A stretch of 30,898 bases of DNA from Clostridia bacterium (GTDB lineage Bacteria > Bacillota > Clostridia > Monoglobales > Monoglobaceae): contig JAZLIC010000099.1 in assembly GCA_045617225.1 (NCBI GenBank), forward strand, positions 1-30,898, written 5' to 3'. How positions within the stretch are numbered: position 1 is the first letter of the stretch; every line of letters begins with the position of its first letter. Below the pieces are notes generated by a model, which was given only the letters and a program-made list of their open reading frames with translations, was not told the DNA's origin and did no database searches. Of the stretch, positions 24,586 through 29,866 are shown piece after piece. The position numbers and the translations under genes were made by a program.

Positions 24586-24614
24586 TTGACTGACGCACAT
24601 ATTTATGTTAATAT
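24586..24614 (+). promoter_or_regulatory. sigma-A promoter for the kinase-like gene
   Basis: TTGACT-17 bp-TAATAT with extended -10 (TGT-TAATAT). Confidence 0.55.
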
Positions 24615-24634
24615 TTAGTGGGAGGTTAATATTT

Positions 24635-25483
24635 ATGAAATACATTAACAGAAGTAAAGAATATGGGATTGATATTGACCCACTTCGCATGATTTACCAC
24701 GCAGTAGACTCGGAAATACGAGAACACGACCCTAAGCTTCAATTTATTTTAACGACTGCAAATTTAGCTCCCGAACATTTTTCGGCTCTGTCACAGACAA
24801 AACTCCGTTATTTAGCACTCGGTGGAAAGCTTCGCCGTTTTACCACACTCTATGGTAAAGATGACGAAACTACAATTCCCAAACCGGCAACCTATAATTT
24901 GTCGCAATATCTGAGCAGTATTGCAGACCTTATAGATACCCAGCTTGGACAGCATATAAACGGACAGGTTACCTTTAAGACAAAACTTGATAATAACTCA
25001 TCTGCCTCCTTTGATGCCGATATGGTAAGCACCATACTTTTTAACCTGGTGGATAATGCTCTGCGTCACGGCGGAACAAGTAATAAAAATGTATATATCA
25101 GTCTTACAGAAGATGCAAAGTCATATATAATATCCGTAAAAGATAAGGGCAGAGGTATGCCGGATAAGGTTTTAAACTCCTTCGTCACCGGTGAACCTGT
25201 ATTACCTGACCTGGCTACCGTTTACCCATCACGCATGGAGGGACTTGGGCTATTGCTCTGTCATAAATATTCAAGGCTTCTTCACGGTACTCTTACCATT
25301 GAAAACCAAAAGGTAGGCACAAAAGTGAATTTGCATCTGCCGAAAAATCCGCCGTATGAATATAAAACTCTGCAAGAACCGCAAAGCTATTATCCTGACA
25401 AAACGACGCTTCTTTTGTTTATGGCAACAACTTTGCTGACGCCTTCTCTGCTTTGCGGCAACGATACACTTATCGAAAATTGA
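24635..25483 (+). CDS. Histidine-kinase-like ATPase (HATPase_c), soluble, atypical N-terminus
   Basis: N box LFNLVDNALRH, G1 box VKDKGRGM, G2 box GLGLLLC, terminal GTKV. No TM segment. ATG 24635 follows SD GGAGG. Confidence 0.75.
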   Translation: MKYINRSKEYGIDIDPLRMIYHAVDSEIREHDPKLQFILTTANLAPEHFSALSQTKLRYLALGGKLRRFTTLYGKDDETTIPKPATYNLSQYLSSIADLIDTQLGQHINGQVTFKTKLDNNSSASFDADMVSTILFNLVDNALRHGGTSNKNVYISLTEDAKSYIISVKDKGRGMPDKVLNSFVTGEPVLPDLATVYPSRMEGLGLLLCHKYSRLLHGTLTIENQKVGTKVNLHLPKNPPYEYKTLQEPQSYYPDKTTLLLFMATTLLTPSLLCGNDTLIEN

Positions 25484-25493
25484 GGTGATAAAA

Positions 25494-26099: not shown

Positions 26100-26128
26100 T
26101 AATATTTGTCCCACCTTTTACATATATA
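26100..26128 (+). promoter_or_regulatory. Candidate sigma-E sporulation promoter for bofA
   Basis: taATAtt -35, 16 bp after ATA, then CATATATA -10 (consensus ATA-16/18-CATAcaHT). bofA is sigma-E controlled in B. subtilis. Confidence 0.45.
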
Positions 26129-26147
26129 TGTAGCAGGTGGTGATAAA

Positions 26148-26414
26148 ATGGTTTTCGATTTCGGAACAATAGGTGCATATACTATTGGGTTATTTTTGCT
26201 CTATGTCTGTTGCTGGATATTTTTAAGACCGATAAAATGGTTTTTAAAGATTATCTTAAACTCTCTGTTTGGCGGTGTATTTATATTTATTATAAACTTA
26301 ATCGGAGGCTATTTTAACCTCCACATTGCACTTAATCCGCTTAATGCGCTTATAACGGGAATCCTTGGCATACCGGGAATAATCCTTACATATATTTTGC
26401 AGACATTCATATAA
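26148..26414 (+). CDS. bofA: Pro-sigmaK processing inhibitor BofA family
   Basis: 88 aa hydrophobic protein with NSLFGG..LIGG...IALNPLNALITGILGIPG signature. ATG 26148 follows GGTGGTG. Confidence 0.88.
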   Translation: MVFDFGTIGAYTIGLFLLYVCCWIFLRPIKWFLKIILNSLFGGVFIFIINLIGGYFNLHIALNPLNALITGILGIPGIILTYILQTFI

Positions 26415-26468
26415 ATGTGGGCTGTTTAAAAAGTCCAAAACAAATTTTTGAATTTGCATTACTTATTA

Positions 26469-26506
26469 ACAAAGAGCGACCATATATGGCCGCCCTTTGT
26501 CTTTTT
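26469..26506. terminator. Intrinsic terminator between convergent bofA and gatD
   Basis: Minus strand ACAAAGGGCGGCCAT-at-ATGGTCGCTCTTTGT (two G-U pairs); T tract CTTTTT on the plus strand. Confidence 0.75.
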
Positions 26507-26511
26507 ATTGT

Positions 26512-27243
26512 TTATTTTTCGCAAAATCTTTCTATTATGCTATGATTTGCAAGTGCTTCAAGCTCGTCATTAAGGGGTGCAAGATATCCAAAGCCATCAT
26601 ACTTTCTATTCATTGCACGTGTCAAGATAAAGTCACAAAGCTCCGGATTTTTAGGGAGCAGAGGCCCATATAAATAAGTTGCAATCACATTCTTATAAAG
26701 TACACCCTCATATCCGCCGTCACCCATATTTCCACCGCCGCAGATAACCTTGCCAAGTGGTGTATGCTCGCCGATAAAGGTTTGACTCCGGTGATTTTCA
26801 AAGCCTACGATTTTACTGCTAAAATCATCATTTTCCAAAACAACATTTCCGCTTAAACGCTTTTTGCCCGGCTCGGTATATATATTAAGGATATCAAGAG
26901 CCTGAACTGTCTTATCCCCTGTTTTATAGTATCTGCCGAGCATAGGATAGCCGCCGCAGGTTGCAATAAGAGCGCCGCCGCTTTCCACATATTTTTTAAA
27001 TTCTTCCTTTTGGGGCATAAGTTGATTCAGAGCTATCTCCTCTTCGCTTTCATCGCCGCCGCCCAGGAAAATTATATCCGCATTTTCTAAATCAAGTGTC
27101 GGATTTTCCATTGTACATTCAATCACATTTGCCTGAATTCCGCGCCATTCAAGGCGTTTTTTAAGGGCATAGATATTCCCTTTATCGCCGTAAAGGTTTA
27201 AAATATCAGGATAAAGATGTATAATATTAAGCTCTTGCATCAT
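26512..27243 (-). CDS. gatD: GatD (CobQ-like class I glutamine amidotransferase subunit) with degenerate active site
   Basis: LYPDILNLYGDKGN, FLGGG, CGGY, GFENH, GPLLPKNP. Overlaps the end of murT. Catalytic His position reads Tyr. Confidence 0.9.
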   Translation of the reverse strand: MMQELNIIHLYPDILNLYGDKGNIYALKKRLEWRGIQANVIECTMENPTLDLENADIIFLGGGDESEEEIALNQLMPQKEEFKKYVESGGALIATCGGYPMLGRYYKTGDKTVQALDILNIYTEPGKKRLSGNVVLENDDFSSKIVGFENHRSQTFIGEHTPLGKVICGGGNMGDGGYEGVLYKNVIATYLYGPLLPKNPELCDFILTRAMNRKYDGFGYLAPLNDELEALANHSIIERFCEK

Positions 27244-28588
27244 TCTTCGGCTCCTCTAATCTACGATTTTTTTGTTCCTTTTGAATTTCCAACATAAGCT
27301 TTTGTGTCGGAAATACAGCGGTATAATTTGCCAGAACATAGCAAACCTCAGCTTCGCTTTCCATAGCCTTGTTTATTGCACTGCGCATATTTTTGGTCAC
27401 ATGACTTACGGGAATATCGAAATACTTAAACCTGAGTGCCAAATCGTAAAGTCTGTCGCCTGATACCGAAAGGGTATTTAAGGTACCGTCACTTAACTTT
27501 TCAAAATCAACATCCCAAATCCAAGACACATCTCTGCCGTCATTCTCGGTATCGTTTATTGCCAAAATTATATCCTTTCTGCGCTTGTCCAATTCTACCG
27601 TCTGAATAGCCTGATTAAAGCCGGCAGGGTTTTTGGCAAGGTTTAAAATAAAAGGCTTTCCTAAATCAATAAGCTCCATACGACCAATCTGCGGCTTATA
27701 ATCACTTAAAATCTCATTGATATCATTTATCTTTATATCCATAACTTTAAGTGTGGAATAGAGTGCCAAAATATTATAGATATTATAAAAGCCACGGTAA
27801 TTTACTGCGATATTATCGGAATTCACTCTAAAACGCATAACTTCCGTAAGGTCAACATTATCTGCCGCAAAGTCAAGATTCGGCCGCTTATTTCCGCAAG
27901 CAGGACAATAGTAGTCCCCAAGTTGATTGTAATGCAGATAATTATACTCCTGTGGGTTACCGCACTTGATACAGAAACGGCCCTCAGGTGATTTTTCCAA
28001 ATCGGGTAAAACCTTTTCATTTACGCCAAAGTAGTGTGCATCTCTACCCTCACCAAGCGTAGAACTGATTGGGTCGTCGCCGTTTAGCACAAGCTTAATG
28101 CCCGGAACTTTCCTGATGGCTTCATCAATAAGCTGCAATGTCATTTCAATTTTGCCATATCTGTCAAGCTGGTCACGGAAAAGATTTGTAACAACCATAC
28201 AGGTCGGCGTAAGGTGGTCAAAAACATATCTTGCGTATGCTTCATCAACCTCAAACACACCATAGTCAGCTTTAAACTTACCAAGCAGATTACATTCCTG
28301 AATAAACGCAGTTGCAACACCGCTTGTCATATTTGCGCCTATACTGTTGCAAACCGTTTTAAATCCGCTTTTTTTAAGAGTAGTATTTATAAGGTTATTA
28401 GTCGTGGTTTTTCCGTTTGTTCCGCAAACTATAATAATCCCCTTTTCAATCTCCTTTGACATATCACGGATTAAATCAGGATAAATCTTCATAGCAAGTA
28501 CGCCCGGTGTGGCGGTGGACATCTTTCCCATTAACAAACCTACAAAGCTTGCAAGCTTTGCCACCCAGACTGCAACTAATCTTTTCAT
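27227..28588 (-). CDS. murT: MurT, lipid II isoglutaminyl synthase ligase subunit
   Basis: GTNGKTTT, FEVDE, TNLFRDQLDRYG, Cys4 zinc finger (CIKC...CPAC), LAKNPAG, NDTENDGRDVSWIWDVDFE. Confidence 0.93.
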   Translation of the reverse strand: MKRLVAVWVAKLASFVGLLMGKMSTATPGVLAMKIYPDLIRDMSKEIEKGIIIVCGTNGKTTTNNLINTTLKKSGFKTVCNSIGANMTSGVATAFIQECNLLGKFKADYGVFEVDEAYARYVFDHLTPTCMVVTNLFRDQLDRYGKIEMTLQLIDEAIRKVPGIKLVLNGDDPISSTLGEGRDAHYFGVNEKVLPDLEKSPEGRFCIKCGNPQEYNYLHYNQLGDYYCPACGNKRPNLDFAADNVDLTEVMRFRVNSDNIAVNYRGFYNIYNILALYSTLKVMDIKINDINEILSDYKPQIGRMELIDLGKPFILNLAKNPAGFNQAIQTVELDKRRKDIILAINDTENDGRDVSWIWDVDFEKLSDGTLNTLSVSGDRLYDLALRFKYFDIPVSHVTKNMRSAINKAMESEAEVCYVLANYTAVFPTQKLMLEIQKEQKNRRLEEPKNDARA

Positions 28589-28618: not shown

Positions 28619-28647
28619 ATTATATACGCTCTCTTATATATTTTCAA
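28619..28647 (-). promoter_or_regulatory. sigma-A promoter for murT-gatD
   Basis: Minus strand TTGAAA-17 bp-TATAAT. Confidence 0.72.
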
Positions 28648-28684: not shown

Positions 28685-29866
28685 TTAATTTATCAAAAAA
28701 TCTGCCAAACACTCGGAAAATCGCTCTGCGCCGTTTACAGCTTCGCTTAAACTGTTTCCACTCGTTCCTACCTCGACGATTATGCTCGCCCTTGTGGTAT
28801 GTCCGTTAAAGCGTTCCTTACGCAGATTTATATAACGCATAAGCTTCGGATAGCGTTTGTTTATGGCATTTTGGAGCTTTATGGCAAACTTCATATTCTC
28901 CTGCCAATTCGGGTGGTACAGACCGCCCTCATCAGTTCCTACCACAAACATAAGCTGAGCGGTCTGCTCTCCGTCAATTTCCGTCACCGTCTTTGCCTTT
29001 GTACCGTCATCATAAACTATGGAGTCCCTGTGGATATCAAGCACCATTTGTATTGACGGATATTTTTCAAGGTATTCTTCCACCGTTTTAAGCGAGCTTG
29101 CATACGCACCGTTAAAAGACGGTTGGTCATGAATTTTGTCACTGTGCAAGGTTTCTATTCCCCTGTTGTTTAAGCTCTCGGCTATAACATTTCCTATCTT
29201 TACAACATTTACATTTGGGTCGTTTGAGCGGTCACTTTCCTCCCTGTTATACACCTCTGCTCCCTCGGGGGAATAGGCTTCCGTAGTATGTGTATGTACT
29301 ATCAAAATTTTAGGTCCATCTCCGTCAAAATTGAGGTTTAAGGGCGATACCAGCATTTCACCGATGTTTATAGGATATGAGGTCTGATTACCTATGGTAA
29401 TTTTTGCGGTATCACTATCCTTTGGCGACGCATCTATTGCTTTGATATCGCCCAAATTCTCCGCATCAATGTTTTTTTGTGCTTCGGTTGCAGTCGGTAC
29501 AGGCACTGTATTATCCCCTCTTTCGGCTAAGGAAAGGCGTACCAATCCGCTCTCGCTTATTGTCCGAAGGGCCGGCATTTGTGAGGACAAAATATCACAC
29601 ACATTAAATGGGTTAAAAGATACCAATATTTTTTGTGTTTCGGTTGCCACACGCTTTGCGCCTCTTTTAATTTGAGAAGGGCGTCCTTCCGAGGCTCCGA
29701 TTACAGGAAGTGTCTGCTTCATAATCTCTATGGGCAGGTCGGTCGAATTATATCCTCCGATAATATTACTGCCCAAAATTATTACTGATACACATAACAA
29801 TAAAATAATAGCATTACGCTTAACTTTTCTGCCGTTTATAACAACGGTCTTATATCTCTTTCGCAT
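28685..29866 (-). CDS. spoIIP: Stage II sporulation protein P (amidase/endopeptidase)
   Basis: N-terminal TM segment, ILIVHTHTTEAY, LDIHRDS, VGTD and IIVEVG motifs. Confidence 0.92.
   Translation of the reverse strand: MRKRYKTVVINGRKVKRNAIILLLCVSVIILGSNIIGGYNSTDLPIEIMKQTLPVIGASEGRPSQIKRGAKRVATETQKILVSFNPFNVCDILSSQMPALRTISESGLVRLSLAERGDNTVPVPTATEAQKNIDAENLGDIKAIDASPKDSDTAKITIGNQTSYPINIGEMLVSPLNLNFDGDGPKILIVHTHTTEAYSPEGAEVYNREESDRSNDPNVNVVKIGNVIAESLNNRGIETLHSDKIHDQPSFNGAYASSLKTVEEYLEKYPSIQMVLDIHRDSIVYDDGTKAKTVTEIDGEQTAQLMFVVGTDEGGLYHPNWQENMKFAIKLQNAINKRYPKLMRYINLRKERFNGHTTRASIIVEVGTSGNSLSEAVNGAERFSECLADFLIN

Follow-up and report, generated by a model that had tools for sequence, protein, structure and literature searches.

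A murT-gatD operon of a Clostridia bacterium in which GatD has lost its catalytic histidine and may persist as a scaffold for ammonia-dependent lipid II amidation

The murT-gatD locus described here, which lies in a window of 30,898 nucleotides (the whole stretch of DNA that was analysed), combines an intact lipid II amidating subunit, MurT, with a GatD protein in which the catalytic histidine is replaced by tyrosine. The explanation that we favor, with a probability of about one half, is that GatD is a pseudo-glutaminase that serves as a scaffold, and that MurT amidates lipid II with free ammonia. Under this scheme, the two genes would form an operon whose products amidate the D-Glu of lipid II at the expense of ATP. 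GatD would have lost glutamine hydrolysis through the replacement of the general-base histidine and the remodeling of the surrounding pocket, and would be retained by purifying selection because MurT needs a structural partner. MurT, in turn, would amidate the acyl-phosphate intermediate with free cytoplasmic ammonia rather than with ammonia channeled from glutamine, in an uncultured organism of the ammonia-rich gut. The MurT/GatD system is essential in Staphylococcus aureus, Streptococcus pneumoniae and Mycobacterium tuberculosis, and work on it as a drug target assumes that it is a glutamine amidotransferase whose Cys-His-Asp triad spans the two subunits.

The features of the locus are listed in Table 1. 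The murT gene is located immediately upstream of gatD in one operon, with a 17-nt overlap between gatD and the murT stop. The hairpin that follows gatD has a predicted stability of -23.3 kcal/mol (z -6.5), which none of 200 shuffled sequences equaled (0/200); a T-run comes after it on the plus strand, and it may end both the bofA and the gatD transcripts. The neighbors of the two genes are spoIIP, bofA, a radical-SAM gene, a gene for a HATPase-domain protein and rsmE. Given that murT-gatD is flanked by bofA (26106-26414, plus strand) and spoIIP (28685-29866, minus strand), the organism is a spore-former. The HATPase-domain protein (292 aa; 24605-25483, plus strand) contains only HATPase_c (residues 137-248), with no HisKA or sensor domain detected in it, and its reading frame ends just before the radical-SAM gene begins at 25485.

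Table 1. Features of the murT-gatD locus, with positions in the window
Feature	Position	Strand	Remark
Promoter-like TTGAAA-17-TATAAT	28619..28647	minus	30 nt 5' of murT start; 11/12 matches, consensus match only
murT, 453 aa	27227..28588	minus	Mur-ligase-type lipid II amidating subunit, apparently intact; PF08245 and PF08353
MurT ATP-binding loop GTNGKT, residues 56-61	28406..28423	minus	
MurT four-Cys zinc ribbon, Cys206, 209, 228, 231	27896..27973	minus	CxxC...CxxC
MurT Asp353 codon in DGRDVSW	27530..27532	minus	S. aureus Asp349, third member of inter-subunit triad; kept
gatD, 243 aa	26512..27243	minus	GATase_3 fold without catalytic His
GatD codons 61-68, GGGDESEE	27040..27063	minus	Family consensus GGGSDREQ; oxyanion glycines 61-63 kept
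GatD Cys96 codon	26956..26958	minus	Nucleophile kept (S. aureus Cys94)
GatD Pro100 codon	26944..26946	minus	Replaces Gln of CGGYQ (S. aureus Gln98); not diagnostic
GatD Arg129 codon	26857..26859	minus	S. aureus Arg128 equivalent, glutamine capture; kept
GatD codons 151-154, HRSQ	26782..26793	minus	Consensus H-A/G-G-R
GatD Tyr192 codon TAT	26668..26670	minus	Replaces catalytic His (S. aureus His189); CAC in sister P0002
15-bp hairpin	26468..26501	minus	Directly 3' of gatD stop; probable terminator, common to convergent bofA

By their domains, fold, synteny and phylogeny, the two proteins are orthologues of MurT/GatD. GatD matches the GATase_3 family (PF07685) with an E-value of 2.5e-33 and S. 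aureus GatD (5n9m/6gs2), to which it is 41% identical, with an E-value of 1e-49 in a HMMER alignment; MurT matches S. aureus MurT (7q8e/6gs2) with an E-value of 2e-81 over residues 1-428. The fold of GatD is intact in the AF2 model, which has a mean pLDDT of 95.8 and aligns with 6gs2_A at a TM-score of 0.91 and an rmsd of 1.9 A. The HMMER alignment to S. aureus GatD bears out what the first-pass annotation of this DNA had read from the letters, namely that Cys96 is kept and that the TYLHGP motif has become TYLYGP. In the segment of codons 61-68, the changes are Ser64Asp, Asp65Glu, Arg66Ser and Gln68Glu, with Asp64-Glu65 corresponding to Ser62-Asp63 of S. aureus, and Arg152-Ser153-Gln154 stand in the place of Gly150-Gly151-Arg152, next to the retained His151. 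All five GatD changes cited in that annotation are present, although its reference motifs were a mix of those of S. aureus and S. pneumoniae, and two of the five, Gln100Pro and Arg154Gln, turned out not to be diagnostic.

With the catalytic histidine replaced by tyrosine and the pocket altered around it, glutamine hydrolysis is not expected. Complexes of S. aureus GatD C94A, H189A and R128A show no glutaminase activity and yet assemble 1:1 with MurT (PMC5871853). By analogy with the inactive His189Ala mutant (PMC5871853), glutamine hydrolysis coupled to lipid II amidation is predicted to be absent here, and the earlier suggestion that this GatD is dead as a glutaminase is well supported. Among the features of the glutamine-hydrolysing lipid II isoglutaminyl synthase (EC 6.3.5.13), the Cys, the Arg and the MurT Asp are found in this system and the His is missing. 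The locus also has the traits of a pseudo-glutaminase GatD, that is, loss within the Cys/His pair in an intact gene that is adjacent to an intact murT, with no second copy found in the genome. We infer from the S. aureus mutants that glutaminase activity has been lost, and the automatic label 'glutamine amidotransferase' is probably wrong for this protein.

The MurT partner is intact, as had been claimed: the P-loop, the four-Cys ribbon and the Asp of DGRD are all kept. MurT departs from its relatives at 8 of the 147 columns that are conserved among 28 of them, mostly by conservative replacements and never in a known catalytic motif. One of the eight, Glu146Lys, reverses the charge (codon 28150-28152; Lys in YGK, Glu or Asp in 27 of the 28 relatives) and is located in a loop that faces GatD; the equivalent residue of S. 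pneumoniae is Glu143, and its Ala mutant is fully active. This replacement is unique to the genome under study, and co-variation with the dead GatD was ruled out, since the MurTs encoded beside other Tyr-type GatDs keep the Glu. The Asp of DGxD is likewise kept in the MurTs that are paired with Cys/His-less GatDs.

The changes in GatD fall mainly in a few stretches. This protein departs from the consensus at 20 of the 116 columns with a conservation of 93% or more, the highest number among 120 sequences; 13 of the 20 fall in the stretches 64-76, 95-101 and 153-154 plus position 192, and the other seven (14, 26, 113, 115, 120, 131 and 235) are scattered. Positions 193-210 show no deviation in their conserved columns; within them lies the short hydrophobic segment, C-terminal to the GatD His, that contacts MurT in the structure of the S. 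aureus complex (PMC6113224), so this interface segment is unchanged. When the changes at conserved sites were polarised with outgroups, 15 were assigned to the branch of the query, including H192Y, D65E, Q68E and R154Q, compared to 5 on the branch of its sister, P0002.

These changes differ in how closely they follow the loss of the catalytic residues. Glu65 is present in 10 of the 20 homologues that lack Cys or His and in 9 of the 399 that have both (these are related, not independent, sequences), and it accompanies four of the five His-to-Tyr lineages. In comparisons of supported independent pairs, a change at position 65 tracks Cys/His loss in about 4.9 of 6 cases and never the reverse, in an underpowered test (p ~0.06). 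The combination of Glu65 with Glu68 is found in only 3 of the 419 homologues, one of which is the other Tyr192-bearing GatD of the family. Conversely, Gln100Pro was rejected as a marker of inactivity because Pro100 is also found in His-bearing relatives (P0002, P0014, P0021, P0053 and P0068) and is uncoupled from Cys/His loss in independent pairs, and Arg154Gln was rejected because the site varies across the family (R in 70, K in 22 and Q in 20 of 136 cluster representatives). On these sequence comparisons, Asp65Glu is the more telling change. Two homologues (P0165 and L123) have Glu65 and Glu68 (TEREE) together with Arg100 and yet retain both Cys and His, a state that may precede the loss of His.

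Similar gene pairs have arisen elsewhere. A 98%-complete genome from a different genus of the same family (G011) encodes a GatD with YLYGP, Glu65 and Glu68 beside an intact murT gene; a further murT/gatD copy was not found there. In the maximum likelihood tree, the query groups with P0002 (SH-aLRT 99) and then with P0003 (95) inside the clade of canonical GatDs of the family, and the GatD of G011 belongs to another supported clade (97), which implies at least two independent His-to-Tyr events. The gatD gene studied here is therefore a young example of a variant that keeps recurring, one of independent origin inside a canonical clade, and replacement of His by Tyr along with Asp65Glu appears in these sequences as a repeated path. 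More broadly, 19 of the 136 representatives of 50%-identity clusters lack Cys and/or His, and 18 changes of state are required to explain the dead forms across a 149-sequence tree. The His-to-Tyr representatives (P0144, P0148 and P0163) are all encoded directly downstream of murT, and pairs of a Cys/His-less GatD with murT come from gut, rumen and digester Clostridia. The proposal of a new route of peptidoglycan modification has to be tempered accordingly, given that dead GatD/MurT pairs are recurrent.

Several observations on these relatives deserve mention in their own right. Three of the loci, L060 (G022:C15:75250-76150), L043 (G028:C5:7240-8160) and L029 (G011:C42), belong to one genus with genomes of 1.2-1.8 Mb. 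Pocket erosion extends across this genus: one species has CDGFA along with Lys129 and Glu65, a second has Asn65, and a third has the full His-to-Tyr change. In the species other than that with Tyr the pockets are eroding and the His is kept, so that the genus could represent successive degrees of loss. In the P0163 lineage (L035:2620-6144 and L036:1045-3756), murT and a Tyr-type gatD are followed by genes for a HisH-like GATase and a HisF-like protein with overlapping stops and starts, which places an active glutaminase directly behind the dead one. Finally, nine proteins of 700-820 aa (P0122, P0127, P0156, P0196, P0206, P0209, P0210, P0228 and P0246) probably represent natural fusions of MurT and GatD in a single chain, with a C-terminal GatD domain (residues 470-707 of 709 in one of them).

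That Cys96, Arg129, the GGG strand and MurT Asp353 have all been kept is also compatible with a glutaminase reaction that persists in a weakened or modified form. In such a case, GatD would still work, perhaps more slowly, with Cys96 helped by Tyr192, Glu65 or MurT Asp353, and amidation would have remained Gln-dependent; His151 is kept as well, and the recurrent Asp65Glu could be compensation rather than decay. We nevertheless regard a working glutaminase as rather unlikely. We know of no class I amidotransferase that tolerates loss of the catalytic His, and the Cys itself is missing in 14 of the 136 cluster representatives, which argues that the chemistry is dispensable in the GatD family. 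The test on position 65 lacks power, and the His189Ala variant of the S. aureus protein is completely inactive (PMC5871853).

Loss of the histidine is rare. Among 419 pooled unique GatD homologues, the His is absent from 12, the Cys from 14 and one or the other from 20. The nearest homologues (119 at a clustering identity of 90%) all keep the His, and of 48 GatDs from genomes of the same family and order a single other one is without it. A scan of genome and metagenome contigs yielded 160 further loci, none of them more than 61% identical, and both Cys and His are present in all those that cover the respective sites (158/158 for His, with two loci ending before it). The nearest relative of the query, P0002, which is encoded on a contig of 1,054 nt, is 77% identical and keeps the His (CAC), and no closer relative was found in the genome and metagenome contig scans.

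The Tyr192 codon rests on one metagenome-assembled genome (MAG). This GatD sequence is carried by a single assembly (P0001: 1 member, 1 contig), and the search for read support returned one public run that shared words with the region (share 0.06), with contigs that span 180 nt of murT but do not reach gatD. As the exchange of His for Tyr requires a single first-position change, Tyr192 might be an assembly error or a minority allele, with the real gene encoding an ordinary, His-bearing, if somewhat divergent, GatD. We consider this quite unlikely. The codon differences from P0002 span several nucleotides (CAC to TAT, AGT to GAT, CGC to CAA and CAC to AGC), so a single base error cannot explain the whole set, and the other changes on the query branch are separate events of several nucleotides. 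Furthermore, the Glu65/Glu68 signature is shared with G011, and Glu65 is enriched where Cys or His is absent. The earlier judgment that a sequencing error is improbable in view of several changes therefore stands for the set as a whole.

The gatD gene is under purifying selection and is not decaying. Compared to P0002, its dN/dS is 0.13, a value that averages both branches and cannot date the loss of His, at a dS of ~1.1 that is near saturation. For the same pair, dN is 0.149 for GatD and 0.135 for the 100 C-terminal codons of MurT, and GatD has diverged 1.08 times as much as MurT in the query, compared to 1.05-1.15 times across 28 relatives; gross relaxation of GatD is ruled out by this normal ratio and by the MurT-equal dN. 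The dN/dS comparison, which had been suggested as a check, hence gave no sign of gross relaxation. Together with the unchanged contact segment, the fold, and the finding that S. aureus MurT by itself shows no activity, whatever the donor (PMC3266927), these values support the proposal that GatD is kept as a scaffold.

The MAG consists of 155 contigs with a total of 1.37 Mb and is 86% complete. A search of it turned up no additional murT or gatD: there is a single match to MurT_C and a single full match to GATase_3, and the other GATase_3 match was ruled out as a second gatD because it belongs to a his operon as a canonical hisH. As points against ammonia as the donor, the MAG encodes glutamine synthetase, so that glutamine should be available, and an ammonium transporter was not found, which weighs little at 86% completeness.

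The small size of this genome, the branch of the query GatD, which is about twice as long as that of its sister (0.34 vs 0.18), and the charge reversal in the MurT loop that faces GatD could all point to an ongoing loss of the whole MurT/GatD system, with amidation no longer needed and both genes early in decay. Such loss is very unlikely, however, because both reading frames are full length, the dN/dS is low and the known MurT motifs are all kept, and the same state persists with intact genes in the separate lineage of G011. The idea that the remodeled pocket accepts or passes on another amine or nitrogen donor, which was also raised in the first-pass annotation, and that MurT thus makes a different stem-peptide modification, would fit the altered pocket positions but is highly improbable, given that no gene for an amine-supplying enzyme or an alternative nitrogen donor is present among the neighbors (spoIIP, bofA, the radical-SAM gene, the HATPase-domain gene and rsmE) and that MurT is a close orthologue of canonical MurT with unchanged acceptor-side motifs.

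With respect to the donor, the use of free ammonia by MurT has an in vitro precedent. The S. aureus C94G GatD/MurT complex loses Gln-dependent amidation and keeps NH3-/NH4Cl-dependent amidation of lipid II at pH 8.5 (PMC3266927). At pH 7.5, the S. aureus enzyme shows no NH3-dependent activity (PMC3266927), which makes ammonia use in vivo uncertain. The earlier suggestion of free ammonia is thus backed by the activity at the higher pH and weakened by its absence at the lower one, and ammonia is the donor that we infer for the present system.

A further, tentative possibility is that the His-to-Tyr change, usually with Asp65Glu, reflects a convergent adaptive switch from glutamine to ammonia in small-genome Clostridia of the gut and rumen, with the present locus caught early in this process (the Cys, Arg129 and also the Asp of MurT still kept), or else that the Tyr/Glu pair builds a new catalytic arrangement with Cys96. 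If the scaffold interpretation is correct, the structural role of GatD for MurT would be separable from catalysis in vivo, and amidation of peptidoglycan in gut anaerobes could be linked to the ammonia of the surroundings instead of the glutamine pool. The locus adds a His-bearing sister as a comparison for the loss of His in GatD, and the changes on the query branch relative to this sister point to candidate residues of the glutamine site, in particular Asp65, which is not discussed in the published GatD work that we examined.

Compared to the canonical MurT/GatD systems of S. aureus (6gs2/6h5e/5n9m), S. pneumoniae (6fqb) and Streptococcus pyogenes (9sq9), the present one has the same operon order, overlap and domains, along with the P-loop, Zn ribbon and DGRD Asp of MurT and the Cys, the Arg128 equivalent and the GGG strand of GatD. 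The difference is that the catalytic His is a Tyr and that Asp65, Gln68, Gln100 and Arg154 are altered. The engineered S. aureus C94G and H189A proteins (PMC3266927, PMC5871853), in which a dead GatD still forms the complex and supports NH3-dependent amidation, resemble the state that we propose. Those proteins are laboratory point mutants with NH3 activity only at pH 8.5, whereas the change described here is natural, is accompanied by further changes in the pocket and has been maintained over a long divergence. Beyond the mutant data of 2012, we found no description of a natural GatD without catalytic residues or of an ammonia-dependent MurT, although our coverage of the literature is incomplete and this is not proof of absence.

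A more distant parallel is mammalian carbamoyl-phosphate synthetase I, an ammonia-using enzyme with a catalytically dead glutaminase-like domain. There, too, a class I amidotransferase module that lacks a catalytic residue is kept structurally and free ammonia is used, as would be the case here; in contrast, the synthetase is unrelated, the domain is fused to it, and the nucleophile rather than the His has been lost. The closest counterparts are the natural gene pairs of P0144, P0148, P0163 and G011, which share with the present locus the same arrangement and the same His-to-Tyr change, often with Asp65Glu. Unlike these, the gatD gene analysed here belongs to a canonical GatD clade, has a His-bearing sister and still encodes the Cys, so that it appears to represent a younger and less complete loss than the other Cys/His-less GatDs.
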